A DNA stretch of 64,000 nucleotides from an uncultured Planctomycetia bacterium. Its GTDB lineage: Bacteria; Omnitrophota; Gorgyraeia; 1-14-0-20-64-10. Each line of letters begins with the position of its first letter. Position 1 is the stretch's first letter. The stretch lies in NCBI GenBank assembly GCA_964597545.1, contig CAZQXN010000004.1, forward strand, positions 6,683-70,682, in the 5' to 3' direction. Made by a program: the position numbers and the translations under genes. Of the stretch, positions 42,842 through 64,000 are shown one piece after another. Under the pieces are notes generated by a model, which was given only the letters and a program-made list of their open reading frames with translations, made no database searches and was not told the DNA's origin.

Positions 42842-42868
42842 GATCTAAAATCTGGTACCGTAAAATCT

Positions 42869-42916
42869 GGTACCGGGTACACTTTTCAACAGTGTACCCG
42901 GTACCTTTGTTTTGTT
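42869..42916 (+). terminator. 15-bp perfect hairpin of the GGTACC repeat family followed by a T-rich run
   Basis: GGTACCGGGTACACTtttcaacAGTGTACCCGGTACC then TTTGTTTTGTT. Confidence 0.5.
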
Positions 42917-42954
42917 GACGGATCCCTTCCGTACCTGGTACCGTCTTTGTTGTC

Positions 42955-48001: not shown

Positions 48002-48032
48002 ATCGGTACCTAAATCGGTACCAGGTACCGAT
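48002..48032. repeat. GGTACC-family palindromic repeat (AATCGGTACCaGGTACCGATT)
   Basis: Perfect 10-bp-arm palindrome directly after the purH stop. Confidence 0.5.
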
Positions 48033-48097
48033 TGTTGTTGCAACTGCATGGCACTAGGGCGGTTGCAAGCTACCTGGCACCGATAGGTTTTCATGAG

Positions 48098-49429
48098 ATG
48101 AATTACCCAGAAGCCCTCCAATATCTCGATCGCTTCATTAATTATGAGCAGGCTGTGGCCTTTCGTTATCCAGAGGCCTTTTCTCTGGACCGGATCGCAG
48201 CACTTTTGAGGCGCTTGGGCAATCCTGAGCGCGACTTTCCTGTGCTGCATGTTGCCGGCACTAAGGGCAAAGGGTCTACCTGTGCCTTTGCCGCCTCCCT
48301 GCTCTCGGCTGCAGGGCTTAAAGTTGGCCTGTATACCTCGCCCCACTTAGCGTCCCTGCGGGAGCGGTTTCGGGTGGGGGGCTGCCCCATCTCCGAGGAG
48401 AAATTCGCCGAGGTGGTTTCCCGGATTAAGCCTTTTGCCAAGAAGGATCTGACCTACTTTGAAGTCACCACGGCATGCGCCTTTAGTTACTTCGCAGATC
48501 TTAAAGTGGATGCGGCAGTCATTGAGGTGGGGTTAGGAGGGAGGTTGGATGCCACCAACGTGGTGAGGCCTGATGTAACAGCCATCACCCCCATCAGCCT
48601 TGACCACATGGACAAGTTGGGTTTCTCCTTGGGCCGCATCGCTCATGAGAAGGCCGGCATCATCAAGCCGGATGTGCCGGTTGTCGTTGCTCGGCAAACC
48701 GCAGAGGTTACTGCACTCTTTGAAGCTGCTGCCCTCAACCAGCAGGCACCCCTGCATCGATTGGAGGAGCAGGCGCGCATCCGATGCCTTTCCTTAACAC
48801 CCCAGGGGTGCCGCTTCTTTCTGGAGACCCCAAAGCAGCTTTATTCAGATTTGTCGATTCCTCTGCTGGGACGGCATCAGGTTGACAATGCTGCTGTGGC
48901 CGTCCGCATGGTAGAGCTTTTTGCCGAGGCGCATCCCGAGAAGCTGCAGGTGACACCCGAAGTAGTCCGAAACGGTTTGAGCCGGGTCGTCTGGCCGGGT
49001 CGGTGTCAGTGGATAGCGGGTAAGCCTTCGATCCTGCTGGATGGAGCGCAGAACAGGGCTTCTGCCCAGGCGCTGCGCGAGACCGTCGACACTCTTTTTC
49101 CCGGTCAAAAGGTTTCGCTCATCTTCGGCGCTTCTCAAGGCAAGGACATTCGCGGCATGGCAGAGATCTGGGGGCCTTGGGCCGACCGCATTCTGGTCAC
49201 GCAGACCCAAAGCCCGCGCGCCGAATCCTCAGCGCACTTAAAAGAGATCTTTGCGGGCCGCGGCATTCACGCTGAGAGTGCCCCCTCTATTGCCTCGGCT
49301 TTAGAAACCGCACAGCAGAAGGCAGCGGCAAAGGATCTCATTGTTATAGCGGGATCACTCTTTGTGGCAGGAGAAGTTCTTAAGCTTCTTGGGCCGCGGA
49401 CCGCCGCTTCTTCCTGCGGCGTTGAGTAA
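48098..49429 (+). CDS. folC: Dihydrofolate synthase / folylpolyglutamate synthase
   Basis: HVAGTKGKGST P-loop, Mur-ligase fold. Start set at MNYPEALQYLDRF. Confidence 0.85.
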   Translation: MNYPEALQYLDRFINYEQAVAFRYPEAFSLDRIAALLRRLGNPERDFPVLHVAGTKGKGSTCAFAASLLSAAGLKVGLYTSPHLASLRERFRVGGCPISEEKFAEVVSRIKPFAKKDLTYFEVTTACAFSYFADLKVDAAVIEVGLGGRLDATNVVRPDVTAITPISLDHMDKLGFSLGRIAHEKAGIIKPDVPVVVARQTAEVTALFEAAALNQQAPLHRLEEQARIRCLSLTPQGCRFFLETPKQLYSDLSIPLLGRHQVDNAAVAVRMVELFAEAHPEKLQVTPEVVRNGLSRVVWPGRCQWIAGKPSILLDGAQNRASAQALRETVDTLFPGQKVSLIFGASQGKDIRGMAEIWGPWADRILVTQTQSPRAESSAHLKEIFAGRGIHAESAPSIASALETAQQKAAAKDLIVIAGSLFVAGEVLKLLGPRTAASSCGVE

Positions 49430-50348
49430 GAAACAGCGCCGCCCCCACCAACCCTGACAAGAGGGGAATGACCGCTGCGATCAAGGAGAGGGAAAGGGCT
49501 TCGGCTGATCCTATATTGATGCGGGAGAGTATCAAGATGACTGCCCCCTCTCGAATTCCCCAGCCGTTCAAGGAGATCGGTAGCTGCGCCACCGTGACCA
49601 CGATGGGGACCACCAGGATCATAAAAAGAAGGGGAATCGGCAGGTTCAATGCCTTGGCGACTGCTGCGAACATAAAGATGGTCAAGGTCTGCACCCCAAT
49701 ACTCACCCCAAAGGCGCGGGCCAACTGCTGGGGATGGCGCAGGTAGTTTAAGAGTGACTCTTGGAACTGCTTGGCGTGAGACTCAAGCTGCCCGAGCCCA
49801 ATGCGGCTGAAGGGCTTGAGCATCTTGTTGAGCACCTGGCGCGATCCCAGGATTGCAAAGGTTGCCGCAACAATCCCGCAGAATCCATAAAAGCCCATCC
49901 GCAACACCGGATCCTCGCGGGCCGGAGTGAAAATAATCCAGGCGCTCAGCCCAAAGGTCAGAAATCCCACCACCCCCAAAAGGCGGTCCATGAGGATCGA
50001 GGCCAAAGATTCCCGCCACTGACCGGTTGCCTTGATCATCTCGTAGCCCCGGATCACATCTCCCCCGACGGTAGTCGGCAGGATGGTGTTGAAGAATGAA
50101 GCGATAAAGAAGGTGCGGATCAAAAAGGGAGGGGTCACCGCCGGATGCTTTGGCACCAGCAGGCTCCACCGAAGGATGCAGACAAACTGCGAGACAAAAA
50201 AGACCACAATGCTCAGCGCCAGCCACGTAAGGTCCGCCGAGCGCAGCGCAGCGACTAAGGCTTGGGTGTCGACAGACTTCAAGACCCACCAGAAGGCAAA
50301 AAACGTAATGCCGGCTCGTATCAGAAAGGAGATTACCGTCCTGGGCAT
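49380..50348 (-). CDS. Flippase-like membrane protein (lysylphosphatidylglycerol-synthase TM-domain family, UPF0104)
   Basis: Polytopic protein; TILPTTVGGDVIRGY motif is typical of the family. Confidence 0.6.
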   Translation of the reverse strand: MPRTVISFLIRAGITFFAFWWVLKSVDTQALVAALRSADLTWLALSIVVFFVSQFVCILRWSLLVPKHPAVTPPFLIRTFFIASFFNTILPTTVGGDVIRGYEMIKATGQWRESLASILMDRLLGVVGFLTFGLSAWIIFTPAREDPVLRMGFYGFCGIVAATFAILGSRQVLNKMLKPFSRIGLGQLESHAKQFQESLLNYLRHPQQLARAFGVSIGVQTLTIFMFAAVAKALNLPIPLLFMILVVPIVVTVAQLPISLNGWGIREGAVILILSRINIGSAEALSLSLIAAVIPLLSGLVGAALFLTQRRRKKRRSAAQEA

Positions 50349-50395
50349 GGGGCGATTATACCATCCTTTGGTTTTGGGCGCGGGGTCACCGGAGC

Positions 50396-51184
50396 TTACT
50401 CCTTCTTGTTGATGTAGTCGTCGAAGGTGATCTTGCCTTCCGTGGTCTGACGAAGCATCCGGACCCGGTCGGCGTAGTAGGGATGGGTTCGAAAGTAAGA
50501 GAAGCGCCGGACCGGCTGGTCAAAGGAATATTCCCTCAGGCGCTCAATGAAGGTGATGGCCGCCTTGACATCGAAGCCCGCGGCTTTGAGATATTTGGCG
50601 CTCAAGCGGTCCGCCTCAAGCTCATCCCGCTGAGAGTAGGCGGTGAGGATCGAGGCAAAGGCCAAATCCATCCCCTGCCGGGCTCGGGCATCGGCCTTGC
50701 CTACACCGACGGCCAGGATCTGAAACAACTGCATCCCGACAGCCCCTTGGATCCTTTTGACTGCGTGCTTGGCCACGACGTGACCCACCTCGTGGGCGAT
50801 CACCGCGGCCAGCTCATCGTCGGTTTCGACCAGATCAAAAAGCCCGGAGGTAACATAGATGGGACCGCCGGGCAGGGCAAAGGCATTGGGAAGCTTCTCC
50901 TTGACGATGGTAAAGCGGAAGCCCAAATCCTTGCGGTCGGCCACAGCAGCGATCCGGCTGCTCACCCGGTCCAGCCGTTCCAGAAGCTCCGGGTTGTAGA
51001 CAATGTCAAATTCCTCTTCCACCTTGCGGGCAACCGACTCCCCCAAGCGGACCTCCCGTGCTGTGGAGATAAAGAGGGTCTCCTGCCGTTCTGTTGCGAC
51101 GTTATAGCTTGTGCTGGCCCCGCAGCCGGCTAGGGCCACTGCGATCATGAACCACAGCGTAAGCGTGTAAGCCCGCTTTATCAT
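50396..51184 (-). CDS. M48-family zinc metallopeptidase lipoprotein
   Basis: HEVGHVVAKH (HExxH) motif. Lipoprotein signal MIKRAYTLTLWFMIAVALAGC at the proposed start. The ORF-track extension to 51352 overlaps the divergent gene. Confidence 0.7.
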   Translation of the reverse strand: MIKRAYTLTLWFMIAVALAGCGASTSYNVATERQETLFISTAREVRLGESVARKVEEEFDIVYNPELLERLDRVSSRIAAVADRKDLGFRFTIVKEKLPNAFALPGGPIYVTSGLFDLVETDDELAAVIAHEVGHVVAKHAVKRIQGAVGMQLFQILAVGVGKADARARQGMDLAFASILTAYSQRDELEADRLSAKYLKAAGFDVKAAITFIERLREYSFDQPVRRFSYFRTHPYYADRVRMLRQTTEGKITFDDYINKKE

Positions 51185-51346
51185 GGCTCCAGTCTCCCAC
51201 ACGAGGACGAATCTCGCAAGGCAGGCAGGACCAAGGGGGTCATTACGCGTTGCGGCTCGCCAGAAAATTAATAGTAATACATAGTTAGTAATTATCTTTG
51301 AAAAAGGAGAGGATATCAGGTAGACTTGAAGCATTAGAGGAACTGC

Positions 51347-54300
51347 ATGCAAACACAGAAGTTAGCCTATCAACTCACAGCACTCATCCTATCGGCAGCT
51401 CTGACGCTGCCCCCTTCTGCGTACGCGCTGCGCCCGCAAGAGAAACAGGAAGCTTCCGGCCTAGAGGAGCTTACCAAGGCCCTGCGCTTAGGCAATCCAG
51501 ACGCTGCCCTCGACACCCTTGTTCAAAGTGTCGCTGAGCGCCTCACCCTACCTGTCCCAGCTACCGGCCAGGAGGAAGGACCGGCAGATAGGATAAGGAC
51601 CCTGCTGGAGAGATCCCCCAATACCGAAACCATCTTTCACATCATCGGTCGGGATCTTCTGAGCACCTACCCCGACCTGAGAGGGTTTCATGATCTCCAT
51701 TCCTCTTTTGCTGTCGAGGGAATATCTAATTCATCTTCGGACTTGATCAGGAGGCATGCTGGGCCAGGCCACCTAGAAGTTTGGTATCACTACCCACAGA
51801 AAGCTGTCTGGATCTCGTGGGAAGAGATGCAATATTCTGCAACGAATTCCAGACGCGGATTTCAGAGGAAAGTTTACCTCTCTACACCCGCCAGGGAGAG
51901 GTTAGGCGTAGAGGGATTCCTTCGGCACCTCCTTGGTCCAGGGCAACTCAATGTTCCCAGTGAACTTTGGGATGGCGATGAAGCAATGTTCCAGGTCCTT
52001 GAAGACCTGGCGACCCTCTCCTCCGCCGGCCAGGAGGAAGCGGAACAAATCCATCAATTCCCAAAAGACGTTATCTCTGAGGAAGAATTACACCTACTTC
52101 CAGCCCAGATATTTCTTTGGGGCATGTTTCGTTTCAATCAAGTGGTTGAGGACCGTTTTGTCGTAAGGCTGAAGAATCGAAGAAACAAAATAGAGATAAT
52201 CCCAGGAGATCCAGAAGATCTTCCAGAAGACGCAGCCATGATGCGCTTGGAGGTACAGGCTCAAGATACCGTGACCGTTACGGTAGAGGGAGCGGCATCT
52301 CCAGAGATTAGAGAGATGGCGGCGGATATCGTCTCGGATTGGCTGAGCAAAGTTTTCCAAGTCAACCAGGAGCTTAAAGCCAAGCAGGCCGAGCACGAGG
52401 GTTCTTTTAAAGATAAAGCCAACGCCATCAAGAGACGAGCTTGGGACGAGTTTTCTGAAAGCTTGACGCCGCTTAAAGCAGCCCTTTCCGCTGGCCAAGA
52501 GGAGGCGGCGCTGGATGAGATTGAGGCAGCCATCGAAACAAAAAGGAGCCTCGACTTCACGCCTACAACCATTCTAAAGCATGGCGATGTCCTGGGCCGT
52601 TTCCATGGAGCCAGGGGCGCTTCGGCCGATGTTTATGTGGAGGCAGATCACGTCCTAGGCAAAGTACTCAACTCCCCCTTCTTCCTGAGAATGGTCCTGG
52701 CACAGCATCTTGGCAAGACCATTGCCGGTGCCACTCCCCTTTCAGTGGATCGACATAGACCCCCCCCGGACAATGTCCGCTTTGCCCTGAATCTTCCCTA
52801 TAGGGATTATCTTGAGGCGATGGAGCCAAGCTTAGAAATGCTGGAGCGCTTAATTGACGATCCAGGGGAGATGGTAGAGGTAGTGGTAGTGGAACCGGCC
52901 CCTCATTCTGGAGGGGCTTGGGTCATTTATAAGGGAGGCCCAGGAGAGGCTTGGGTGCCCGGTTTCATCCCTACCCGCTTTGTGTTTGCCAAGAGTGTGC
53001 CGCATAGTGCAGCCCCTGGGAGATGGTGGCTGCACTCGAAGATCGGACAGACCATTCGCGTTAGGCCGGACAGTGTTAATCGGAGGGGCCATTTTCCGCA
53101 GGCAGTCTTTGCCGCGGACCAGTCCTTTAATGCGGTTCGACGAGAGATTCGCCTGGCCGAACGAGAACTTCAGCAGCGAGACAAAGAGCATATCCCAGTC
53201 CGAGTGATTCTCGTTCACGAAGCTCTGCAGGGAGTCGAGGTGATGTATCGGAGTCAAAACGGCGGGTGGATAAGCGGTTTTATCCCCCCCTCCCGCATCT
53301 CCTTTCATTCTAAAGGACGGCCTGTCGGAAGGTTGCCCCATCTGCTTGACCGCTTGGGTTGGTTCCTCTCCCGGGTTGGCCAGGATATTCCAGCGGATCT
53401 TATCGCGATTGACAGCAGCAGAGGGCTTCCCAGAGCCACCTTCTCTGTCCGCTTGTCTTTGGAGGAAGTGCTCCAGGAGATGCAGCCAGCCCTTGAGCGG
53501 TTAGGTCAGGCAGCGGCCAATCCGAACGATCGGGTTGATGTGGAGTTGGCCTTGTTGGGCAGTAGAGAGGATGCAAACAGTATGAGGTATAGCCATTGGA
53601 ACCAGACAAGCTGGGTTCCGGGCTTCATTCCTGCGAGCCTATTCCTGGATGATCCTCACCAGAAAGTGCATACCTCCATTATCCGCGCTTGGTTATGGCG
53701 GCACCGGCATGAAAAGATTCCGGTGGCCGTAAAAGATGTTACACACAATCGACACCTTCCCAGGGCAGCCTTCAGCCTTGGACTTACAATTGACCAACTT
53801 AAAGCGGAGATTGAGCCTGCAGCCGAGCAGTTGGAAGGCTTAGGCCCGGGAGAGCTTCAGGTTCCATGTGAGGTGATACCCGCTACTGTAGAGGCCGGAG
53901 CAGAGGTGTTGTATCGCGGGCCCAGAGGAACGTGGATCCCAGGTTTTATTCATAAGAGCTACATCCGCTTTTTAGATAGAACAGTAGCTCCTCATGCCCT
54001 TTGGAGTCAATGGCTGAAAAGGCAAGTTGGCCGCAAGATCAATGTTACGTTTAATCACATCAAGCGCAATGATCCCATCCCGTCCGCGCTTTTTTCGTTG
54101 ACTCTGCCTGAGGATGTCCGGCCCTCTTTCCGTCCGGGCAAGACAGCTTCCGCTGGCCAGGAGGAGTGGTCAGCGGATGTTTGGAATCGACTTCACGCCG
54201 TCGGGCTGCATGGGACAACTGGCCCCTTGCTCAAGGAAATCATCCAGTATTACTCCAGGCAGGGGGCCGACGCCGATTTCGAGGGTGTCCGGGAAAAATG

Positions 54301-57001
54301 GGAAGCAATTGCCCGGATCATCCCTGATGCTCCGAGTCTTTCCGGTGTGGCAGAGGGTGTTGTGAGCGGTTTTATAGAGCGGGAGCTTCCCCTTTGGAAA
54401 CTTTCCGGGGTCCTCCTTCGCCGAGGCAGGTATGGTGAGGGTCACGGTGTTCTGCTGATTGGAGACGCCCGGCATGCTACAGTGAAAGCGCCCCAGACCA
54501 TTCAAATCAACCGAGGTTTAACCGGCCTCGCTCTTTTCCTTGTGGGAGATCCGAATATGAGCTGGGTTAAGCCACCACCCAAAGCTCCGGATTGGCGGTT
54601 CCTTGCTCAAAACAATCTTGTTGGCTTCGTAAGCGATGGCCAGCTCATTGTTGGCTCCAATCCCACGACAGAGAACCCCTCTGGACTGCGCGCCAAGATA
54701 GGTTGGCGGGATGACGACGTACCCTTTGGGTCAACAAGAATCCAATCCAGAGGAGAGTTTATTCCTGTTGAGCGCATCATCAAACTGGAAATGAAGGATA
54801 CCAAACCCTCAAAGATTGAGGCGGTTTGGGTCGGCTCTTCGCACGTAGCAATTCCGGAAGCGTTGGTACAGATCCTTGAGAGAATCGACGCCATTCATTT
54901 GGAGATCCAAGAGGGGGATCGTTTGGGGCAGTACCGGGAGTATGCTGGGCGCCTGCATCGAGAGTATTTTGCCGGCCTGGAAGAGGTTCAAGACGAGGTG
55001 GTGCGGCAGGCATGGGACGAATTGCGTCGGATTGTTACCCTAGAAGAATTTCAGGTTGACGATGAGGAGGCTCTTGTTCGGTTTGGGAAATCCACAGGGG
55101 CTAAAGTGGTTAAGAAAACAATTACAGGACGCCCCATCGTTACTATTGGACCGGAAATGTTCCGGAAATTGACCGCTTTTCGCCAGACAGGCCAACTTCC
55201 GCCTGGTACCCCCGCCAAGCATTATGAAGAACTACGAAACAATGATGAAGTGAATGAACCTGGCGTTTATGTGAGTCCTACCGGACTGAAAATGGCGCAT
55301 CAGGAGTTGGCTGCCGCAGGCATTGATTTTCGTTATACGAAAGGAATCTTCTTTCATGAGGCGCTGGAGGAAGGGTTTGATGGTTCCGGAATCACTGACC
55401 CCATCTTGGCTCTATGTGAACAGCATACGGACCCAAGGGTGATCGAAGAGGAGCTTCTGGTCAATGCGTTAATCGGGGAAGAAAGCGTAGAGGCCTCACG
55501 GGCAGGTTATCAATTCGCCAAACAGAGAGTTGATCAAAACCTCAGCAATAGCCAGCGCTTCTTCGCGTTTGTTAAAGACCGTTACGAGAGCGGAGGCCGT
55601 TCTACCACATTTGATGAGATTGAAGCCTCGCTTGGCCCAACAAGCCGGTATTATCGAACACTCCAATGGGTTGTTGATACCCCGTACGACCAACTCCTCG
55701 CATTGGCCCAAAGACGCTGGGAAGGATCCGATTACTCCTCTGCCGTTCCTCTCGCAGCCGGCCTGGAGGAGGAGACAACCAGAGTCCTGGCTCCTACGCT
55801 GGAAGTTCCAATTGCTGCCCTGGAAGAGGGTAATCTAGAGCAAGCACTGCAAGGATCTGCCTATCTCCTGGAGCCTAAGCCGACAACAGATCAACTCGAA
55901 ACATCTTTTGTGCAATTCCCCGGTGAACTCTGGGCTGTTGGATTCAGGGATCGAGACAATATTCCGCATCTCGCTGTTGGAGCAGGAAACAGGGATCACG
56001 CTATTGGCATAACTGATTTCTTAACCAAGGCATACAGCGCGGCGCCCGTCAGCGTTGACGTCGTTCACAAGCATCCGGAGCCCCCCTTTCCTTCGAAGGG
56101 AGATTTTGATCTATTGAGAACCTGGAAGCTACGCCAGGGAGGGCGCGTAGGCCGACAGCGCAATTGGGTTGAGATTCGCCGAGATGGAGTGTGGCGACTC
56201 CTTGGGTACGGGAGAGATTATAAAGAGACGGCAGATTTCCAAAGAGAGATTCAGGTTCAGATTTGGAAAAGAGGCGAGAGGGCGCAGAACGAGTTCTATC
56301 TTCCAGGTACTGGAGGTTTACGCGTTGCGCTTGTCGCGGACCAAGAGGTTTTTGGCATCCCGGGCCTTGATTATTTCTATCAGTTGATCGACCAGCCTGA
56401 GACAACAGGGGTCAGGTTCGAAGATGCCGTTGGCCACTGGGTTCTCTGGAGGGCAGACAACACCTGGGAATCTATCTTCGAATCACAAGGCTATACTCGT
56501 TCTGCCACTAGCTTTTCGACAGCGAGCAGGGCAGGGCCGGTGGAAGCGGCAGGCGCGCTGCTTACGCGGTTGGCCCAAGCCGCAGAAGGCCAACCCGGCG
56601 TTTTGGTGCTCACCCCTGAGGCCATCCAGGATCCAGCCGGCCTAGAGGAGCTTATCAAGCGCCTCCCCCCAGAGCTCTTACGACGGACCATCTGGTTCAA
56701 CACAGGAGTTGCCCTGGCCGAATACCTGCACTCCCTTGAACCCACCCTCCAGATCATAAAGGACTACAACACCCAAGCCCTGGTCCTAAAACTCCTCAGC
56801 AGGGAAGAGGCAGAGAAGATCACCACCACCTCTAAAGATCTTGCCCTCTACCTCCAAGAAGTCCTCCCCATGACCGTCACCTACCTTAAGGTCCTCACCG
56901 TCAAGCTGATCCTGGCGGCCCTAGGGGTTCCCATCGAACAGCTCAACCAGATCGACCCCACCAAGCTCGAAGCCCTCTTCGCACCGCTGGTAGCCGCCTA
57001 A
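51347..57001 (+). CDS. Giant secreted protein (1884 aa), unknown function, with four W[VI]PGFIP-type internal repeats and recurrent A-x-G-(L/Q)-E-E motifs
   Basis: - Signal peptide MQTQKLAYQLTALILSAALTLPPSAYA.
- Repeats (GEAWVPGFIPTRF..., GGWISGFIPPSRI..., TSWVPGFIPASLF..., GTWIPGFIHKSYI...), each followed by a basic segment and L..A.FS..L.
- C-terminal 135-aa module is duplicated at 63200-63624. Confidence 0.7.
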   Translation: MQTQKLAYQLTALILSAALTLPPSAYALRPQEKQEASGLEELTKALRLGNPDAALDTLVQSVAERLTLPVPATGQEEGPADRIRTLLERSPNTETIFHIIGRDLLSTYPDLRGFHDLHSSFAVEGISNSSSDLIRRHAGPGHLEVWYHYPQKAVWISWEEMQYSATNSRRGFQRKVYLSTPARERLGVEGFLRHLLGPGQLNVPSELWDGDEAMFQVLEDLATLSSAGQEEAEQIHQFPKDVISEEELHLLPAQIFLWGMFRFNQVVEDRFVVRLKNRRNKIEIIPGDPEDLPEDAAMMRLEVQAQDTVTVTVEGAASPEIREMAADIVSDWLSKVFQVNQELKAKQAEHEGSFKDKANAIKRRAWDEFSESLTPLKAALSAGQEEAALDEIEAAIETKRSLDFTPTTILKHGDVLGRFHGARGASADVYVEADHVLGKVLNSPFFLRMVLAQHLGKTIAGATPLSVDRHRPPPDNVRFALNLPYRDYLEAMEPSLEMLERLIDDPGEMVEVVVVEPAPHSGGAWVIYKGGPGEAWVPGFIPTRFVFAKSVPHSAAPGRWWLHSKIGQTIRVRPDSVNRRGHFPQAVFAADQSFNAVRREIRLAERELQQRDKEHIPVRVILVHEALQGVEVMYRSQNGGWISGFIPPSRISFHSKGRPVGRLPHLLDRLGWFLSRVGQDIPADLIAIDSSRGLPRATFSVRLSLEEVLQEMQPALERLGQAAANPNDRVDVELALLGSREDANSMRYSHWNQTSWVPGFIPASLFLDDPHQKVHTSIIRAWLWRHRHEKIPVAVKDVTHNRHLPRAAFSLGLTIDQLKAEIEPAAEQLEGLGPGELQVPCEVIPATVEAGAEVLYRGPRGTWIPGFIHKSYIRFLDRTVAPHALWSQWLKRQVGRKINVTFNHIKRNDPIPSALFSLTLPEDVRPSFRPGKTASAGQEEWSADVWNRLHAVGLHGTTGPLLKEIIQYYSRQGADADFEGVREKWEAIARIIPDAPSLSGVAEGVVSGFIERELPLWKLSGVLLRRGRYGEGHGVLLIGDARHATVKAPQTIQINRGLTGLALFLVGDPNMSWVKPPPKAPDWRFLAQNNLVGFVSDGQLIVGSNPTTENPSGLRAKIGWRDDDVPFGSTRIQSRGEFIPVERIIKLEMKDTKPSKIEAVWVGSSHVAIPEALVQILERIDAIHLEIQEGDRLGQYREYAGRLHREYFAGLEEVQDEVVRQAWDELRRIVTLEEFQVDDEEALVRFGKSTGAKVVKKTITGRPIVTIGPEMFRKLTAFRQTGQLPPGTPAKHYEELRNNDEVNEPGVYVSPTGLKMAHQELAAAGIDFRYTKGIFFHEALEEGFDGSGITDPILALCEQHTDPRVIEEELLVNALIGEESVEASRAGYQFAKQRVDQNLSNSQRFFAFVKDRYESGGRSTTFDEIEASLGPTSRYYRTLQWVVDTPYDQLLALAQRRWEGSDYSSAVPLAAGLEEETTRVLAPTLEVPIAALEEGNLEQALQGSAYLLEPKPTTDQLETSFVQFPGELWAVGFRDRDNIPHLAVGAGNRDHAIGITDFLTKAYSAAPVSVDVVHKHPEPPFPSKGDFDLLRTWKLRQGGRVGRQRNWVEIRRDGVWRLLGYGRDYKETADFQREIQVQIWKRGERAQNEFYLPGTGGLRVALVADQEVFGIPGLDYFYQLIDQPETTGVRFEDAVGHWVLWRADNTWESIFESQGYTRSATSFSTASRAGPVEAAGALLTRLAQAAEGQPGVLVLTPEAIQDPAGLEELIKRLPPELLRRTIWFNTGVALAEYLHSLEPTLQIIKDYNTQALVLKLLSREEAEKITTTSKDLALYLQEVLPMTVTYLKVLTVKLILAALGVPIEQLNQIDPTKLEALFAPLVAA

Positions 57002-57024
57002 ACCCAAACCTAAAACCTGTACCC

Positions 57025-57053
57025 GGTACCAAGGGGTCAGACCCTTTCGTACC
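57025..57053. repeat. GGTACC / GGGTCAGACCC-family hairpin after the giant gene (contains the 19-mer GGGTCAGACCCTTTCGTAC also found at 21434)
   Basis: GGTACCAAGGGGTCaGACCCTTTCGTACC is an imperfect hairpin. Confidence 0.5.
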
Positions 57054-57081
57054 AGTATTTGATAAATATGCAACATATTTG

Positions 57082-57110
57082 TTGACATCGTTAACAGGGC
57101 GGTGTACCTT
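57082..57110 (+). promoter_or_regulatory. Putative promoter (TTGACA - 17 nt - TACCTT) preceded by an ATATGCAACAT motif
   Basis: TTGACA at 57082-57087. The motif TTGATAAATATGCAACAT resembles the RAYT promoter region. Confidence 0.3.
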
Positions 57111-57119
57111 AGTGCCCCC

Positions 57120-57680
57120 ATGGACACCAAGGTTTCCTGCGAAAGACTCCTCGCCAAGCAAGTTGAGCACCACATTCTCCTCATCCGGGGCCAGAAGGTG
57201 ATGTTGGATTCGGACCTGGCCGCGCTCTATGGCGTCAGCGTTGGAAGATTAAACGAGGCAGTCAAACGCCGGGTCAATCGGTTTCCCTCCGATTTCATGT
57301 TTCAGTTGACGCCTCAAGAGGCGCAATCTCTAAGGTCGCAAATTGCGACCTTAAACTTGAAATCGCAAATTGCGATATCAAGTTTAAATTGGGGTGGGCG
57401 GCGCCACCCCCCGTTTGCATTTACCGAGCAAGGTGTTGCTATGCTCTCCACCGTCCTTAACAGTGAGCGGGCGATTCGCATCAACGTTGCGATCATGCGG
57501 GCCTTCGTCAAGCTCCGGGAGATGCTTTCTGCACACAAGGCGCTGGCTCGGAAGCTGACTGAGCTGGAACGCAAACTCGAAGGGCATGATGCGCAAATTC
57601 ACTCACTCTTTGAAGCCATCCGGCAGCTTATGGCACCGCCCAAACGCGTTCGCCGGAAAATCGGGTTTCAGGCGGGGTAG
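57120..57680 (+). CDS. ORF6N-domain (KilA-N-like, phage-associated DNA-binding) protein, paralog 1
   Basis: HILLIRGQKVMLDSDLAALYGV...FMFQLT...PFAFTEQGVAMLSTVLNSERAIRINVAIMRAFVKLR is the ORF6N domain. Confidence 0.7.
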   Translation: MDTKVSCERLLAKQVEHHILLIRGQKVMLDSDLAALYGVSVGRLNEAVKRRVNRFPSDFMFQLTPQEAQSLRSQIATLNLKSQIAISSLNWGGRRHPPFAFTEQGVAMLSTVLNSERAIRINVAIMRAFVKLREMLSAHKALARKLTELERKLEGHDAQIHSLFEAIRQLMAPPKRVRRKIGFQAG

Positions 57681-57688
57681 CGGGTAGC

Positions 57689-59230
57689 GTGCTGGCCAAG
57701 GTTCATTCTGCAGCGCTCGTTGGCTTGACCGCCGTTCCGGTTGCGGTAGAGGCGGATGTCTCCAACGGTTTGCCCGGGGTGACTGTTGTGGGCCTGCCGG
57801 ATACCGCGGTTCGGGAGTCCAAGGTTCGCATCCGCTCAGCCATCAAAAACAGCCAGTACGACTGGCCCATGAGCCGGATGACGGTCAATCTCGCTCCTGC
57901 TGATGCTCGGAAAGAAGGTTCAGCCTTTGATTTTCCGATGGCGCTGGGGCTCTTGGCTGCCTCCGGCCAGATGGATCCGACTGCCTTGGCCGACACCGTC
58001 ATCTTGGGGGAGCTGGCGCTGGATGGCTCCTTAAGGCCGGTTCCAGGGATTCTGGCGGTTGCCTTAAGCCTTCAGGGCAAGGGCAAGCGCCTTCTTCTTC
58101 CGGCAGCCAATGCGGCTGAGGCAGCCATGGTTGAAGGGGTTGAAGCCTACCCCTTAAGCTGCCTTCCTCAAGCGATTCAGTTTCTGGAAGGGCGAGAGGA
58201 GGTCAGCCCGGCGCAGGTCGATTTGACAAAGCTTCTCCAGAATGATCCTGCGTCAGATGGCCTGGATTTTTCAGAGGTGAAGGGGCAGGTGACCGCCAAG
58301 CGAGCCATTGAGATTGCCGTTGTTGGAAGCCACAATCTGCTTTTGCTCGGTCCACCCGGTGCCGGCAAGACCATGCTGGCTGAGCGGATTCCAACAATCC
58401 TGCCGGAGATCTCAGCACCCGAGGCGTTGGAGACTACCTTAATCTACAGCGTAACCGGGCACCTGCAATTGAGTCGGCCCCTTCTGAATAAGCGGCCCTT
58501 TCGTTTTCCGCATCACACGGTATCCGACGTGGGGCTTGTCGGAGGCGGTTCCCCTCCCAAGCCAGGGGAGATCTCCCTGGCGCATCACGGGGTACTCTTC
58601 TTAGATGAACTGCCGGAGTTCCCCCGCTCAGTCTTAGAAAGCTTGCGCCAACCTTTGGAGGAGGGGAGGATCACGGTCTGTCGAGCCAGAGGAACCACCA
58701 CCTTCCCGGCTAAGTTCATGTTGGTTGCCGCCATGAATCCATGCCCGTGCGGTTTTGCCGGGGATGTCACCAAGAATTGTCTTTGCACCCCCAGCCAGTT
58801 CCTCAAGTACCGCTCCAGAGTCTCCGGCCCCTTGATGGACCGGATTGACCTCCACGTTGAGGTCCCGGCCCTTTCCTACAGCGAGCTGACTGAGGAAACT
58901 CCAGCAGAGTCCTCCACGGCTATCCGGATGCGAGTAACCCAGGCTCGTGCTCGTCAACAAAGGCGCTTTCAGGCTACCCCCAGCTGTTTTGCCAACGCCC
59001 AAATGCGCCACCGGCACCTCAAGCGCTTCTGTTCCCTCTCTGAGGAGAGCCGCCAGCTCCTCAAGGATGCCATCTCGGGCTTGGGTCTCTCTGCCCGCGC
59101 CTACCACAAGATCCTTAAAGTTGCCCGAACCATTGCTGACCTGGAAGCTGCCCCTGATATCGTTCCTCACCACCTGGCAGAGGCGATCCAATACCGCCTT
59201 CTGGACCGCTCCTATGCCGACTCCCTCTAA
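57689..59230 (+). CDS. comM: Mg-chelatase-like AAA+ ATPase YifB/ComM
   Basis: Lon-protease-like N-domain, Walker [21 protein letters not shown] Walker B, C-terminal ChlI-type domain. GTG start. Confidence 0.85.
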   Translation: MLAKVHSAALVGLTAVPVAVEADVSNGLPGVTVVGLPDTAVRESKVRIRSAIKNSQYDWPMSRMTVNLAPADARKEGSAFDFPMALGLLAASGQMDPTALADTVILGELALDGSLRPVPGILAVALSLQGKGKRLLLPAANAAEAAMVEGVEAYPLSCLPQAIQFLEGREEVSPAQVDLTKLLQNDPASDGLDFSEVKGQVTAKRAIEIAVVGSHNLLLLGPPGAGKTMLAERIPTILPEISAPEALETTLIYSVTGHLQLSRPLLNKRPFRFPHHTVSDVGLVGGGSPPKPGEISLAHHGVLFLDELPEFPRSVLESLRQPLEEGRITVCRARGTTTFPAKFMLVAAMNPCPCGFAGDVTKNCLCTPSQFLKYRSRVSGPLMDRIDLHVEVPALSYSELTEETPAESSTAIRMRVTQARARQQRRFQATPSCFANAQMRHRHLKRFCSLSEESRQLLKDAISGLGLSARAYHKILKVARTIADLEAAPDIVPHHLAEAIQYRLLDRSYADSL

Positions 59231-59741
59231 CCAGAAGATCATCGTTGATCAGGTAGAGCGCCGAATCCTTCTTATTCGAAGCCAGAAGGTAATGTTGGAC
59301 TCGGACCTGGCGAAACTCTACGGGATTGCAACGAAGAAATTGAACCAAACAGTCAGACGTCACATCAAACGCTTTCCACGGGATTTTATGTTGCAGCTGA
59401 CCTGGGAAGGGGTAGAGAAGCTTTCAAGGTCACAATTTGTGACCTTGAAACATGGGCAGAATATCAAATATCGGCCCTACGTTTTCACAGAACAGGGAGT
59501 AGCGATGCTCTCGTGTGTTCTGAACAGCGAGCGAGCCATTCAGGTTAACATCGCCATCATGCGGGTTTTTGTGAAGCTCCGGAAGATGTTGACCAACCAC
59601 AAAGGGTTGGCTCAGAAACTGGAAACGCTGGAAAAGCGATACGACGCGCAATTCAAAATAGTTTTTGACGCGATTCGCAAGCTCATGATACCCACCCATC
59701 GGCTTCGGCGTCGCATTGGGTTCCATTCACAGAAGCGTTAG
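59214..59741 (+). CDS. ORF6N-domain protein, paralog 2
   Basis: RILLIRSQKVMLDSDLAKLYGI...FMLQLT...PYVFTEQGVAMLSCVLNSERAIQVNIAIMRVFVKLR. Start at the internal Met overlapping the comM end. The ORF-track start at 58947 lies inside comM. Confidence 0.65.
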   Translation: MPTPSNQKIIVDQVERRILLIRSQKVMLDSDLAKLYGIATKKLNQTVRRHIKRFPRDFMLQLTWEGVEKLSRSQFVTLKHGQNIKYRPYVFTEQGVAMLSCVLNSERAIQVNIAIMRVFVKLRKMLTNHKGLAQKLETLEKRYDAQFKIVFDAIRKLMIPTHRLRRRIGFHSQKR

Positions 59742-59767
59742 ATGGATTCAGCGCAAAGGAGGAGAAG

Positions 59768-60049
59768 ATGATTAAACTTGTTACGTTGACTGTTGAGCGG
59801 ATGAACCGGTTCGAAGGAGAAGGGACCGCCCGCGCCTTCTGCGATGTGGCCATCGGCGGCTCCTTTCTCATCAAGGGGATTAAGGTCCTAGAGGGTAAGA
59901 AGGGCCTCTTTGTTAACATGCCCCGCGAGAAAGGAAAAGATGACCAATGGTACGGCACCGTCATCCCTTTAAGCAAAGAGGCCTACCAGCAGCTCTCGGA
60001 GACTGTCCTTACGGCCTACCACTCTGAAACCACCCCTTCCACCGAGTAA
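59768..60049 (+). CDS. spoVG: SpoVG-family protein
   Basis: RAFCDVAIGGSFLIKGIKVLEGKKGLFVNMPRE matches the SpoVG core. Confidence 0.8.
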   Translation: MIKLVTLTVERMNRFEGEGTARAFCDVAIGGSFLIKGIKVLEGKKGLFVNMPREKGKDDQWYGTVIPLSKEAYQQLSETVLTAYHSETTPSTE

Positions 60050-60385
60050 CCCACTGCAGCTCAATACGCAGGCGGCAGTCACTCGCACAACTCGCACTCG
60101 TGGGACGCTCACCAGGAGCGGCGGAATCGGGGCGGATTTGACGTAACTATTGATCAGGTATTAGGTTAACGAGATTTGTGCTTGCGGGCCCGGAACGCTG
60201 GGGGGCCGAAAAATTTGATGAAATTACCCCCTTGCAGCTTAGGAGATAGTGTATACTTTCTTACTGTAAGGAACAATATAGGTCTGAAAAAGGCAAACTA
60301 TCCGAAAGGGTAGGGCGTAACGCCATAGAGCCGTCAGGGTTATGTAATGTAACCCCCGGCAGTCGGTTGCCAGATCAAACGGTAA

Positions 60386-60424
60386 AAGCCCTAAGCTTTT
60401 GGATAAGTTTGGGGCTTTTTTTAT
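60386..60424 (+). terminator. Imperfect hairpin followed by T7 (intrinsic terminator)
   Basis: AAGCCCTAAGCTTttggatAAGTTTGGGGCTTTTTTT. Confidence 0.5.
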
Positions 60425-60502
60425 TTGTACACTAGCTTGATTCTTGGCGGAAGAAGATATGGTGGAATCTCAAAGGGATTGAAGGAAAAGGGGGTTGCGG
60501 GA

Positions 60503-61645
60503 ATGAAGAGCAAGATGAAATTGATTATAGGTATGATAATGGGATTTTCATTCTCGGTAGTGATGCTATGTATGGGGGGTAGTTCCATATATGCTGCCGA
60601 GCTTGAGGTGGATAAGGAGGAATTTAACGAAAAATGGCAGGAAACCTACAAGGAACTTCAGGAGATTGATCCTACAGCAGCCGAAGAATTTCGCGCTTTA
60701 ACTGTGGAGGAATTTGAAGTAGGAAATGTCGGATATGTTCCTGAAGAGAGAGGGGGGACTGAGGAAATAGGTCCTGGCCCTGCTCCCGGTCCTAGGCCTG
60801 GTCCGCATGTCGGTCCCCGTCCTGATCCCGTGGAAGCTTTGAAAGCAAAAGGAATAAGTGATGAGGATATTGGCAAGATTCGCAAGGCTGAGGAAGCATT
60901 AAGCGTGGAAAGCGAGAAGGTCGAATGGGATAAGCTGACTCCCGAGGAAGCAAGGAAGGTGGAGCAGTCCTTCGGAGAACGTTTCAAGGAAATGAGCGGG
61001 TATGATCCAAAAGATATTTTTGCCCCGCCTCCGGGAGACCACCACCCAGAAGGCCCATATCACGGGCCAGGACATGAGGGGCCTTACGCTGGTCCTCATC
61101 ATGAAGGGCCTTATGTCGGTCCTCGTCCGGAACCTGGCTTCATAGAGGGTCCATATCCTGGGCCAGGACATGAAGGACCTTACGCCGGTCCTCATCCAGA
61201 ACGTGGTTTTGAAGGTCCCGTGATGGGGGGGCCGATGCCTGAAGGTCCCGTGATGGGGGGGCCGATGCCTGAAGGTCCCATGATGGAGGGCCCGGCATTT
61301 GAGGGTCCTATGATGGGGGGGCCGATGCCTGAAGGTCCCATGATGGATAGGCCGATGTTTGAAGGTCCTATGATGGAGGGCCCGGCGTTTGAGGGTCCCA
61401 TGATGGAAGGGCCGGCATTTGAGGGTCCCATGATGGAGGGCCCGGCGTTTGAGGGCCCGGCATTTGAGGGCCCAGCGTTTGAGGGTCCGGCGTTTGAGGG
61501 CCCGGCATTTGAGGGTCCGGCGTTTGAGGGCCCGGCATTTGAGGGCCCAGCGTTTGAGGGTCCGGCATTTGAGGGCCCAGGAGAGGATATAGAGCATATC
61601 CATGATGAGAATATGCCACCACCTCCAGAAGAGAATAATCCGTAA
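60503..61645 (+). CDS. Secreted His/Pro/Gly-rich tandem-repeat protein (EGPYxGPxH, EGPMMEGP and EGPAFEGP repeats)
   Basis: Signal peptide MKSKMKLIIGMIMGFSFSVVMLCMGGSSIYA at the ATG at 60503. 15-nt and 30-nt periodic coding repeats at about 61020-61600. AT-rich context. Confidence 0.7.
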   Translation: MKSKMKLIIGMIMGFSFSVVMLCMGGSSIYAAELEVDKEEFNEKWQETYKELQEIDPTAAEEFRALTVEEFEVGNVGYVPEERGGTEEIGPGPAPGPRPGPHVGPRPDPVEALKAKGISDEDIGKIRKAEEALSVESEKVEWDKLTPEEARKVEQSFGERFKEMSGYDPKDIFAPPPGDHHPEGPYHGPGHEGPYAGPHHEGPYVGPRPEPGFIEGPYPGPGHEGPYAGPHPERGFEGPVMGGPMPEGPVMGGPMPEGPMMEGPAFEGPMMGGPMPEGPMMDRPMFEGPMMEGPAFEGPMMEGPAFEGPMMEGPAFEGPAFEGPAFEGPAFEGPAFEGPAFEGPAFEGPAFEGPAFEGPGEDIEHIHDENMPPPPEENNP

Positions 61646-61708
61646 GAAGGCTAGTGGCCTATACTGGAGAGTTGTGGGGTTTGAGGTAAGGTAGGTAACT
61701 GCAGAAAA

Positions 61709-61746
61709 GTAAAAGGCCTACTTCTTCAAAGAAGTAGGCCTTTTAC
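61709..61746. terminator. Bidirectional rho-independent terminator (16-bp perfect palindrome) between convergent genes
   Basis: GTAAAAGGCCTACTTCTTcaaaGAAGTAGGCCTTTTAC. Confidence 0.7.
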
Positions 61747-61758
61747 TATAGAGAAATA

Positions 61759-62862
61759 CTAGAAACTTACGTAGAGTCCTGCCAGGTGCGAAACCTGGTC
61801 GTAGTCGTAAACAGCATAGTTTGAGTCTGACTTCTTGTGCGTGAAGGTGTATGACAAGGTCCAGTCTTTCTTCAGCGTATAGTAGAAGTATAACTTCTGG
61901 GTATATACATCGTCGTATTCCATTTCAGCATATGATGCAGGTGAGCCCACCCTGCGCTTGCAGTAGTTCTTTCGTTCATAGGCCGAACTGGCTTTGGCAT
62001 ACAGTTTCTTTGTGAGGCTACGGCCAAGCTCTCCTGTCACCTTATAGGAATACAGGTCGTAGTACTCCCTGTAGTTGTCGTTGGAAGTTTCTGTGTAGAA
62101 CTTTTGCTTGATCTTAGCGTTGTTTTTGCCCAGGAGAGGAAAACCCAGGTTGTATTCAAAAGCATGTCTGTTTTTTTCCACCACCATTCCGGAAATAAAG
62201 TCAGTGCTGGTGTTTGTGCGTGGTCGCTTTTTATCGTACTCCTTAAAGGAGTACTCGTATTTACCATCGTGAGACCAGCGTTTCCAGAATCGGTGCTTGA
62301 ACTTCAGGAAGAGCTTATCCTCCGTATAAGAGGAGGTTCCGGCGTCAGGGTAATGGACGTACTGGCGTTCCCACCCTGGCTGTAACTCAAAGTAAGGTTT
62401 TCCGGTAGGGAAATATTTAAGGATGACTTTAAAGGCAGCGTCCAAGATGGTCGTATCCTGGTTGTCGAAGTAGATATCGGCATAATGCCACGGACCGATC
62501 TCTGCCCCAAAGTAATCGTTGAAGGTAGGAACCCAAGCAAAGGAAAAATACTGTTCGAAATATAGGTCTCCCCGTCGGTCAGAATTGGTATTGGCATTTT
62601 TGTCGTATCCAATGTGAAGACCGACTGTTCCTTTGGTGGCGCGCAGTTGTTCGCGTTGTTTCTCTTCCATCTTGCGCAAGGCGCGCTGCTTGAGCATCTC
62701 GATCAATTCCTCGGCAGAGCTTATAGCCGCGCCTCTGTCTTCCGCAAGCCCTTCCGCCAGGCGGTCCTCTCGGGCCTCTTCCGATTGGGCCCATCCCGGC
62801 GGCGGATTGATGAGTAGGGCTCCGACAATCAAGCTGAGCAGAAAGAGATCCTTTCTTGCCAT
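61759..62862 (-). CDS. Outer-membrane beta-barrel protein (porin-like), unknown specificity
   Basis: Signal peptide MARKDLFLLSLIVGALLINPPPGWA. Tyr/Lys/Asp-rich with alternating hydrophobic pattern. C-terminal ...LAGLYVSF aromatic terminus. AT-rich codon usage. Confidence 0.6.
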   Translation of the reverse strand: MARKDLFLLSLIVGALLINPPPGWAQSEEAREDRLAEGLAEDRGAAISSAEELIEMLKQRALRKMEEKQREQLRATKGTVGLHIGYDKNANTNSDRRGDLYFEQYFSFAWVPTFNDYFGAEIGPWHYADIYFDNQDTTILDAAFKVILKYFPTGKPYFELQPGWERQYVHYPDAGTSSYTEDKLFLKFKHRFWKRWSHDGKYEYSFKEYDKKRPRTNTSTDFISGMVVEKNRHAFEYNLGFPLLGKNNAKIKQKFYTETSNDNYREYYDLYSYKVTGELGRSLTKKLYAKASSAYERKNYCKRRVGSPASYAEMEYDDVYTQKLYFYYTLKKDWTLSYTFTHKKSDSNYAVYDYDQVSHLAGLYVSF

Positions 62863-62973
62863 TTTTTCTTCCCTCCCCCCTTAGTTAGAATTAAAAACAA
62901 CATACGCTTTTTGCAAACAGTTGTCTACATTTTTGTCAAGTTATTTTGGTGCAAATAACTGTCCCCCTAACAA

Positions 62974-63624
62974 GTGGCCGCTATCGAGATTGCGGTGGCC
63001 GGCTGCCACAACCTCCTCTTGATTGGCCCGCCCGGTGCCGGCAAGACCATGTTGGCTGAGCGGATTCCAACAATCCTGCCAGAGATCTCAGCACCCGAGG
63101 CATTGGACACCACCTTGATCTACAGCGTGACTGGGCATCTTCAGCTGAGTCGACTCCTGTTGAATAGACGGCCCTTTCGCTTCCCGCACCACCTTGCTCA
63201 AGAGGCAAAGGGCCGCTCCGGCATGCTGGTACTAACCCCGAAAGCCATCCAGGACCCAGCCGGCCTGGAGGAACTCGTTAAGCGCCTGCCTCCAGAGCTC
63301 TTGCAGCGGATCATCTGGTTCAACACAGGTGTTGCCCTGGCCAAACGCCTGCATGCCCTGGAACCCACCCTCCAGATCATAGAGGACTACAACACCCAAG
63401 CCCTGGTCCTAAAACTCCTAAGCCAGGAAGCAGCAGAAAAGATCTCCACCACCTCTGAATCCCTCACCCTCTACCTCCAAGAAGTCCTCCCCATGACCGT
63501 CACCTATCTGAAAGCCCTCACCGTCAAGCTGATCCTTGTCGCCTTAGGGGTCCCCATGGAGCAGCTCAACCAGATCGATCCCACCCAGCTAGAAACCCTC
63601 TTCGCACCGATTACCGCTGCTTAA
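62974..63624 (+). pseudogene. Chimeric duplicated fragment: internal comM segment (Walker A region) fused in-frame to a copy of the giant protein C-terminal module
   Basis: - Residues [42 protein letters not shown]...RPFRFPHH are about 85% identical to comM residues about 205-290.
- The following residues, ...[26 protein letters not shown]...LFAPITAA, are about 80% identical to giant-protein residues about 1750-1884.
- The fragment is followed by the same GGTACC repeat. Confidence 0.55.
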
Positions 63625-63690
63625 CCCTAAAATCGGTACCAGGTACCAAACCCACAAATCGGTACCTGGTACCAAGAGCTGGTACCAAAA
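63625..63690. repeat. GGTACC-family repeat (AATCGGTACCAGGTACCAAACCCAC ... AATCGGTACCTGGTACCAAG ... GGTACC)
   Basis: The same terminal unit as the bioD-bioA element; arms in opposite a/t-centre orientation. Confidence 0.55.
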
Positions 63691-63717
63691 CGGGCAAGGC
63701 TTTGCTAAAATACCTCT

Positions 63718-64000
63718 ATGCCAAGAGCTCCCCGGCTGGATTGGAAGCGCTTGCGGCGCTACAGCCTCACCGAACGGCCCAGCAAGGTTAATCAGAAGGC
63801 CTTTGCCAAGGCCACCCCTGCAGGTTCTTCTTTTCGAACCTTTACCGGAAATCTGCCTAACATACTGGCCTCAGAGAAGTTCCTGCGATTGGTAGAGGCG
63901 CTCGCCTCTGCTCACAAGCAGCGCAAACCGGTCCTGGCTTTCCTGGGGGCCCATGTCTTGAAGGTGGGTCTGTCTCCCCTGATCATTGATTTGATGGAGC
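63718..64000 (+). CDS. Partial ORF of unknown function running off the window end
   Basis: ATG at 63718, no stop within the window (MPRAPRLDWKRLRRYSLTERPSKVNQKAFAK...LAFLGAHVLKVGLSPLIIDLME). Confidence 0.3.
   Translation, partial: MPRAPRLDWKRLRRYSLTERPSKVNQKAFAKATPAGSSFRTFTGNLPNILASEKFLRLVEALASAHKQRKPVLAFLGAHVLKVGLSPLIIDLME

Follow-up and report, generated by a model that had tools for sequence, protein, structure and literature searches.

In the genome of an uncultured member of the Omnitrophota (NCBI GenBank assembly GCA_964597545.1), a 64,000-nt stretch of contig CAZQXN010000004.1, hereafter the window, carries an intact comM gene and, downstream of it, a short open reading frame (ORF) in which an internal piece of a comM gene runs directly into the C-terminal module of a giant modular protein. 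ComM (YifB) is the hexameric AAA+ helicase of natural transformation (PMC6158740). We read this chimera as a young, probably non-functional gene-fragment mosaic, made of the surviving ends of a diverged second copy of the locus that were trimmed by deletions and fused in frame by chance, and would give this reading a probability of roughly 0.58. It draws on the substitution pattern of the two halves and on a sister genome that has no such segment. The chimera is unusual only in its youth and in belonging to a lineage deeper than the genome's own sister.

Make-up of the chimeric reading frame

When positions 62800-64000 were compared by BLASTN with the rest of the window, 62980-63192 paired with 58304-58516 in the resident comM gene (83.1% identity over 213 nt, no gaps) and 63196-63649 paired with 56573-57032 at the end of the giant gene (82.9%); the same two pairings were returned by a separate repeat search of the window. 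In its coding part the second homology covers 63193-63621, equivalent to 56570-56998 (83.0% over 429 nt, no gaps), and it passes the stop codon of the source by 28 nt. The halves meet at 63192/63193, where the frame of both is kept and microhomology is absent, and the left edge of the homology, at 62980, lies six bases past the GTG and two codons past an in-frame TAA. Neither stops nor indels occur over 642 nt, and the product is recorded as predicted protein P0001 in an NCBI-derived protein collection. The original prediction, an in-frame chimera of an internal comM fragment and the C-terminal module of the giant gene, was thus borne out by the BLASTN pairings and the junction; its identities (about 85% and 80%) and coordinates were slightly off, both halves measuring about 83%. 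Neither BLASTN nor a hidden Markov model of the module found a further copy of either piece within the 64 kb. The elements concerned are these:

62974-63624, plus strand: chimeric ORF of 216 amino acids (aa), GTG start, TAA stop at 63622-63624
62980-63192, plus strand: comM-derived piece, 71 codons equivalent to ComM codons 206-276
63193-63621, plus strand: copy of the C-terminal module, 143 codons, Rossmann-like domain
58304-58516, plus strand: resident comM stretch homologous to the comM-derived piece, inside the intact comM gene 57689-59230
56570-57032, plus strand: resident C-terminal module and start of the repeat downstream of it; the module is the last 143 codons of ORF 51347-57001, which encodes the 1884-aa modular protein
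63625-63657: left arm of the GGTACC palindromic repeat, with GGTACCAGGTACC at 63635-63647
63658-63717: right repeat arm and leader of the downstream gene, with GGTACCTGGTACC at 63661-63673
62940-62959: AT-rich palindrome GTTATTT-N6-AAATAAC, unique in the window

The resident gene encodes a complete 513-aa ComM/YifB with the ChlI, Mg_chelatase and Mg_chelatase_C domains (Pfam). The piece in the chimera begins where the AAA+ core begins, takes in Walker A (GPPGAGKT), reaches the RPFRFPHH motif and breaks off about 30 codons before Walker B (resident D306/E307). Accordingly, positions 13-87 of the 207 in Pfam Mg_chelatase (PF01078) match chimera residues 2-77, and a Pfam scan of the chimera found neither the N-terminal ChlI/Lon-like PF13541 nor PF13335 (Mg_chelatase_C), which the resident protein has at residues 20-141 and 407-503. 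Its first 71 codons resemble ComM closely, with 90% protein identity to the resident and Walker A included, but the chimera fails as a ComM, since three defining parts (ChlI, Walker B and the C-terminal domain) are missing.

The module profile covers chimera residues 74-216, all 143 positions, with an E value of 9.5e-81. AlphaFold2 (AF2) predicts a five-stranded Rossmann-like domain with a confidence score (pLDDT) of about 90 over this part; its low confidence on the N-terminal piece is uninformative, as the alignment held no ComM rows. The copy begins inside the first helix, some 6-13 residues after the place of the usual G(L/Q)EE linker, and the junction reads ...RPFRFPHH/LAQEAKG, so that ComM sequence stands in for the linker and the first half-helix. 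A signal peptide is likewise missing, the N-terminus being ComM core sequence. Judged by sequence, the chimera is therefore an irregular member of the module family, with linker and leader absent. An internal ATG at 63223, just before module strand 1, would give a 133-aa product, and two short members of the family (P0246 and P0262) begin at the corresponding position. For the chimera itself, a promoter scan found no sigma-70-like site on the plus strand and direct reading of the sequence found no Shine-Dalgarno motif before the GTG, in agreement with the earlier statement that a promoter and a ribosome-binding site are absent.

Past the stop codon, the homology to the resident locus enters the first GGTACC and ends at 63649. 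The palindrome that follows the chimera, GGTACCAGGTACC-N13-GGTACCTGGTACC, has a perfect 13-bp stem (-30.7 kcal/mol, z -3.9), and the resident module gene has a different hairpin at its 3' end. The proposal that copy and original are followed by the same repeat element therefore holds as far as the first GGTACC, with the 3' boundary lying in the repeat, and not beyond it. The form of the chimera's palindrome is shared with the one after the module gene P0242 in contig L003 of a relative, so that module and palindrome together look like a native gene end; on this alignment, the left repeat arm accompanies the module copy. Neither the left edge of the chimera nor its internal junction lies at a repeat. 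A hairpin had also been proposed just upstream of the chimera. The palindrome is indeed present at 62940-62959, but forms no stable hairpin (z +0.65), and it adjoins the promoter-like site (62927-62899) of the divergent minus-strand porin gene.

Selection, allele lineages and the sister genome

The differences between the chimera and the resident genes carry the mark of coding constraint. By codon position (1/2/3) they number 5/3/28 in the comM-derived piece and 21/11/41 in the module. By the Nei-Gojobori method, the comM-derived piece has a synonymous divergence (dS) of 0.96, a non-synonymous divergence (dN) of 0.039 and a ratio (omega) of 0.04, and the module copy has a dS of 0.50, a dN of 0.11 and an omega of 0.22, to be set beside an omega of 0.15-0.25 between working members of the module family. 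Non-synonymous differences amount to 6 and 32.5, where 56-57 and 76-81 are expected under neutrality, and neutrality since the split is rejected for both halves (P about 1e-17 and about 1e-8, respectively). An unconstrained phase can take up at most about 8% (comM-derived piece) and 18% (module) of the divergence path. Counted against two outgroups, unique amino-acid changes in the chimera versus the resident module are 11 versus 6 and 8 versus 7; the chimera's module has evolved no faster than the resident one. In simulations of neutral copies at the observed divergence, only 4% were still without a stop codon. Almost all of the 17% divergence therefore arose inside working genes, and on this pattern truncation and fusion happened recently. 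The omega values, the deficit of non-synonymous differences and the lack of stops and frameshifts rule out a pseudogene that was copied from the resident genes and decayed neutrally.

A sister genome places the two halves in a phylogenetic frame. It consists of contigs L008 (75 kb) and L009, found through P0303, the second member of the ComM cluster; contig L001 comes from the same organism, given that its module is 100% identical to that of L008. Window positions 44705-51547 are 92.1% identical to L008, and five upstream backbone genes differ from the sister by a dS of only 0.15-0.27. The corresponding values are 0.32 for the deoxyhypusine-synthase-like (DS-like) gene downstream of the chimera, 0.48 for SpoVG, 0.68 for comM and 0.88 for ORF6N-A, the ORF6N-domain gene upstream of comM. 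The tract of module, ORF6N and comM is thus 3-5 times deeper in its divergence from the sister than the surrounding chromosome. Put in coordinates, the tract at about 56570-60050 (module-ORF6N-comM(-spoVG)) has a dS of 0.48-0.88 to L008, and the flanking backbone one of 0.15-0.32. This depth suggests recombinational exchange of diverged alleles as its simplest cause, and suggests by the same token that allele exchange affects the locus of the transformation helicase itself.

Over the 213-nt comM stretch, the chimera differs from the resident by a dS of 0.96 and from the sister by one of 0.90, and the resident and sister alleles are separated by 0.73. Site patterns that pair two of the three alleles split 10/12/17, which is star-like with the chimera's piece slightly outermost, and all three share clade-specific residues that are absent from every comM of 69% identity or less. 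This equidistance, together with the shared residues, makes the piece a third allele lineage of the same clade and no copy of the resident gene. The module copy is nearest to the resident module, at 83% nucleotide identity versus 72-73% to L001/L008 and L003. Given this third lineage and the constraint on both halves, the original prediction of an old duplication, perhaps a decaying pseudogene, is not sustained.

One stretch of the comM-derived piece departs from this picture, and it and the segment missing from the sister are located as follows:

63031-63099, plus strand, equivalent to 58355-58423: near-identical patch between the comM-derived piece and resident comM (2 of 69 nt differ; codons 18-40 of the piece)
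60053-63657: segment that the sister lacks, located between spoVG and the DS-like gene (comparison with L008)

The flanks of the patch are saturated at synonymous sites (the proportion of synonymous differences, pS, is 0.77), and within it 16 consecutive third positions are identical (permutation P 0.0025), in a stretch that varies at third positions among relatives. At four synonymous third positions inside the patch, the piece equals the resident and differs from the sister. The patch is a probable tract of ectopic gene conversion between the relic and resident comM, and such conversion requires that the two lie in one genome. Synonymous divergence is also uneven in the module, more weakly (P 0.03-0.04), with a pS of 0.21 in codons 48-96 and 0.52 at the start.

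In the sister, the spoVG stop is followed directly by the right repeat arm, in the sequence ...TAACCCTCCTAAAGATCGGTACCTGGTACCAAG..., and by the DS-like gene; the window's 63658-63717, right arm plus leader, thus has its counterpart there immediately past spoVG. The 60053-63657 segment of the window, which holds a riboswitch-like leader, a secreted protein gene, a porin gene, the chimera and the left repeat arm, is therefore lineage-specific content of a variable slot. The hexamer TAACCC occurs at 60047-60052, just before the left edge of the segment, and again at 63622-63627, near its right end; both occurrences begin with a stop codon, so the pair is weak evidence of a microhomology event. 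Between comM and spoVG the sister keeps only a 28-codon 3' remnant of the second ORF6N gene, ORF6N-B (L008 11543-11736; tblastn E 3e-6), which implies that a deletion left a gene stump at the same locus.

Origin of the mosaic

From the homologies, junctions, substitution pattern, empty site and deep tract, all of which were observed directly, we infer a source of the second copy, an order of events and a lack of function. The two halves would derive from a second, diverged version of ComM and of a gene that ends in the module, each kept by selection until shortly before they were joined. At the outset, a diverged comM and a module-bearing gene ending in the GGTACC palindrome would have come to lie in the variable slot between spoVG and the DS-like gene (slot 2), whether through recombination with an unsampled relative's DNA or as a paralogue that once functioned. 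That comM and ORF6N-A diverge 3-5 times more than the backbone indicates that alleles of this tract move between lineages. The redundant copy would then have been trimmed by deletions. One of them would have brought comM codon 276 up against the module's first helix, with the frame kept by a 1-in-3 chance; a further event would have stripped away all sequence 5' of codon 206, so that the fragment came to abut the porin promoter region. The right edge would be a repeat-to-repeat joint in the GGTACC palindrome, and the relic would later have exchanged a tract of about 70 nt with resident comM by gene conversion. Non-function is supported by the missing Shine-Dalgarno and promoter-like sites and by an AAA+ piece without Walker B or any motif after it.

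Gene remnants are left where redundant or acquired DNA decays by deletion, in line with the deletion bias of bacterial genomes. The chimera resembles such remnants in consisting of promoterless fragments in a variable slot whose boundaries ignore the AAA+ domain, at a locus where the sister lacks the segment and keeps another remnant, that of ORF6N-B. It differs in having undergone almost no neutral decay, in being fused in frame and in stemming from a lineage more diverged than the sister.

Several observations weigh against this origin. Neither a donor nor an intact second copy was found, and only the resident and sister ComM exceed 69% identity. The comM piece stands before the module, a permutation of the resident arrangement (module gene, ORF6N, comM); were the source arranged like the resident locus, deletion alone would be insufficient, and either a module gene downstream of comM in the source or a permuting event is needed. 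The module copy starts within about 10 codons of the natural domain start, for which a random break in 1884 codons has a chance of about 1%; this nearly domain-sized copy, with an ATG exactly where some short family members begin, would fit a selected, functional product, and the unaccelerated evolution of the module is equally expected of a working gene. Moreover, the dS values of 0.96 and 0.50 are rough, because synonymous divergence is uneven along both halves.

The permuted order can also be accounted for by a template-switch error at the repeat upstream of the DS-like gene, in which 213 nt of the genome's own comM were copied, synthesis jumped back 1.9 kb to copy module and repeat and returned by repeat homology, and the resident tract was afterwards replaced by a diverged allele. 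We consider this unlikely, although it would explain why both sources lie, permuted, within one 2-kb tract at displacements of 4676 and 6623 nt, which are typical of templated insertions, why the right boundary falls inside a repeat common to both sites, why both halves show the same 83% identity and why divergence from the sister is 3-5 times higher in the resident tract than in the backbone, as would follow an allele replacement. Two rare events are required, however; the two halves differ in dS (0.96, saturated outside the patch, versus 0.50); and the near-equidistance of the comM-derived piece from resident and sister means that the replaced allele must itself have been deeply diverged. 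Were this explanation true, the relic would preserve the former resident allele. A single tandem duplication was rejected on the same geometry, since the displacements are unequal and an intact comM stands before the chimera. The likeness to fusion ORFs at rearrangement joins, which combine an internal gene part with the 3' end of a neighbour gene in permuted order, ends at the same two points and at copies that are 17% diverged instead of identical.

Somewhat less probable again, in our estimate, is a working gene, in which the ORF or the product from the ATG at 63223 is a new stand-alone or re-headed module kept by selection. The ORF is intact, the module evolves at an unaccelerated omega of 0.22, is almost complete and has a confidently predicted fold (pLDDT about 90), the family fuses its module to many unrelated heads and has short members sharing the start position, and the chimera is recorded as a predicted protein in the NCBI-derived collection. 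Yet it has no signal peptide, G(L/Q)EE linker, ribosome-binding site or promoter-like site, it is absent from the sister genome, and no second example was found among 5.8 billion proteins. Its 71-aa AAA+ fragment, furthermore, cannot be an ATPase and nonetheless has an omega of 0.04, which makes sense only if the constraint acted within a full ComM. Much the same doubt attaches to the idea that the chimera is a snapshot of the family gaining new heads, by recombination of module plus palindrome onto arbitrary coding DNA, with the copy or the 133-aa product expressed and selected, or serving as a conversion donor for the hypervariable resident protein. It appears very improbable that the promoterless module copy, and perhaps the comM piece with it, is a silent donor cassette from which gene conversion diversifies or repairs the resident genes that are expressed, as in systems of the pilS/pilE type. 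The probable conversion tract does link the comM-derived piece to resident comM, the synonymous divergence of the module is uneven (pS 0.21 in codons 48-96 versus 0.52 at the start), and the giant protein of slot 1 is hypervariable between the sister genomes, with its N-terminus and C-terminal module kept. But a single extra copy is no cassette array, there would be no sense in diversifying the Walker A region of a housekeeping helicase, no part of the protein varies less than the conserved module, and any two similar sequences that share a genome can be expected to produce a conversion patch as a by-product.

The window is part of a 92-kb contig that derives from a metagenome, and the pieces resemble alleles of a related lineage, as would be expected if reads of a co-occurring related population had been joined into a chimera that exists in no single genome. 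We hold such an artefact to be the least probable of all the explanations weighed here. A graph mis-join would call for sequence shared with the resident copies, and neither junction has any; three such mis-joins would have to fall within 700 bp; 83% identity leaves no room for a collapse of near-identical repeats; and the patch, in which the comM-derived piece equals the resident and differs from the sister at four synonymous sites, fits co-residence. Composition and third-position GC content (GC3) were uninformative as to which copy is foreign. Import of porin gene and comM piece together from a lineage like that of contig L006, where a porin homologue lies upstream of spoVG-comM, was rejected, because the piece is 54% identical in protein and 61% in nucleotides to the L006 ComM versus 90% in protein to the resident. 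Also rejected was a scar of a comM-targeting transposon. The comM gene is a known hot spot, and the mobile elements that target it (Tn6022 with TnsF; Tsy) cut at Walker B and leave 5' and 3' portions around recombinase or transposase genes (PMC10293859). A stray piece of comM alongside a comM gene in one genome is reminiscent of these elements, but here the piece is internal (codons 206-276), it stops about 30 codons short of Walker B, the resident comM gene is whole and the genes between the two include no recombinase.

The variable locus and the module family

Contigs L002, L004 and L005 of relatives share a backbone of FolC, LPG synthase (minus strand), M48 peptidase (minus strand), slot 1, ORF6N, comM, zero to two extra ORF6N genes, SpoVG, slot 2, the DS-like gene, PfkB, KdsB, PyrG, KdsA and KdsD. 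In the window, slot 1 is the 1884-aa gene, and the order runs from this giant gene through ORF6N and intact comM to the chimera, with ORF6N, SpoVG, the repeat protein and the porin between the last two. Slot 2 holds, in order, the riboswitch-like leader, the repeat-rich secreted protein gene, the porin gene, the porin promoter-like region, the chimera and the GGTACC palindrome, and its gene content differs in each relative examined. Further features of the region and of the repeat family are listed here:

60425-61645, plus strand: repeat-rich secreted protein gene, slot 2
61759-62862, minus strand: BBP2_2-like porin gene, convergent, slot 2
63718-64000, plus strand: 5' part of the DS-like gene, right edge of the variable slot
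21397-21512, 42854-42942, 48005-48029, 57006-57050 and 63629-63686: GGTACC palindromic repeats after stop codons

The DS-like gene is 65% identical in protein to its counterpart in L002, and the top matches of ComM are named Candidatus Omnitrophica, most of them 69% identical or less. ORF6N-domain paralogues (70-73% nucleotide identity) stand on both sides of comM, at 57120-57680 and about 59230-59741, and L005 has two ORF6N copies downstream of comM. The low-complexity secreted protein gene and the BBP2_2-like porin gene form a convergent pair that recurs in other Omnitrophota (L006, L007); in L006 the same pair adjoins spoVG and comM in a different arrangement. Upstream of the secreted protein gene, 60283-60375 (plus strand) matches the c-di-GMP-I-GGC riboswitch model RF03167 with 47.7 bits, below the gathering score of 59 (E 4.9e-9), and a terminator-like hairpin with a T-run follows at 60384-60419, directly 5' of the gene with its EGPAF/EGPMM repeats. 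Rfam gave no match at the chimera or its repeats, and no tRNA gene that could serve as an integration site lies within the window.

The GGTACC element is abundant in the window, with 34 sites versus 7.8 expected, clustered past stop codons in several intergenic regions and forming hairpins with z scores of -3.9 to -7.1. An IS200-like Y1_Tnp gene lies at 7792-8388 (Pfam E 1.4e-13), and repeats and transposase gene may be a pair of the type formed by repetitive extragenic palindromes and their associated transposases (REP/RAYT). Multi-copy intergenic palindromes and a Y1 transposase gene are the likeness, which extends to the GGTACC element only, and the right edge of the chimera falls in such a repeat; by way of difference, there is no evidence that the Y1 transposase moved the fragment. 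In the plus-strand ORF 20686-22827, a dethiobiotin-synthetase-like part (AAA_26, residues 13-217) and a class III aminotransferase (residues 306-701) are separated by a GGTACC element (21391-21527) that is read through in frame; a repeat thus seems to supply the linker in a BioD-BioA-like fusion.

A profile search of 1.84 billion representatives found the module in 36 proteins of 108-4056 aa, in most of which the best match reaches the C-terminus. Their N-terminal parts are unrelated, being Response_reg-like, HATPase-like or metallophosphatase in some and without a Pfam match in most, and the idea in the original prediction that the module has been shuffled agrees with this mobility. Modules are separated by (A/S/T)G(L/Q)EE motifs, the conserved Rossmann-like module ends in ..AA, and the pattern ..(A/S/T)G(L/Q)EE-x(8-20)-LAxAAxG precedes strand 1. 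Full-length members, among them the giant protein, the slot-1 protein of the sister and several others, start with a hydrophobic, signal-like leader ending in ...ALR (...PAFALR...). What the slot-1 proteins of window and sister have in common is the first 78 residues, a single middle block and the module; their total lengths are 1884 and 876 aa (L008 6615-9245). A fold search of the module against the PDB gave no match below E 0.01, only generic Rossmann-like folds, and scans with the module alignment found no match in genome and metagenome contig collections, which are without close relatives. This modular Omnitrophota family (including P0242-P0274) is apparently undescribed so far; a text search of an Omnitrophota preprint (10.64898/2026.06.07.730766) found nothing related to the chimera.

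Taken alone, the chimera is of little consequence: mosaics of gene fragments are familiar, and evidence should be wanted before an annotation pipeline calls this one a protein. Together with the sister genome, it marks a module-ORF6N-comM tract whose alleles are 3-5 times older than the surrounding chromosome and which gains and loses whole modules and genes. Datable relics from this tract could help to trace recombination between uncultured lineages. The chimera also draws attention to an apparently undescribed family of C-terminal modules, with G(L/Q)EE linkers and highly variable N-termini.

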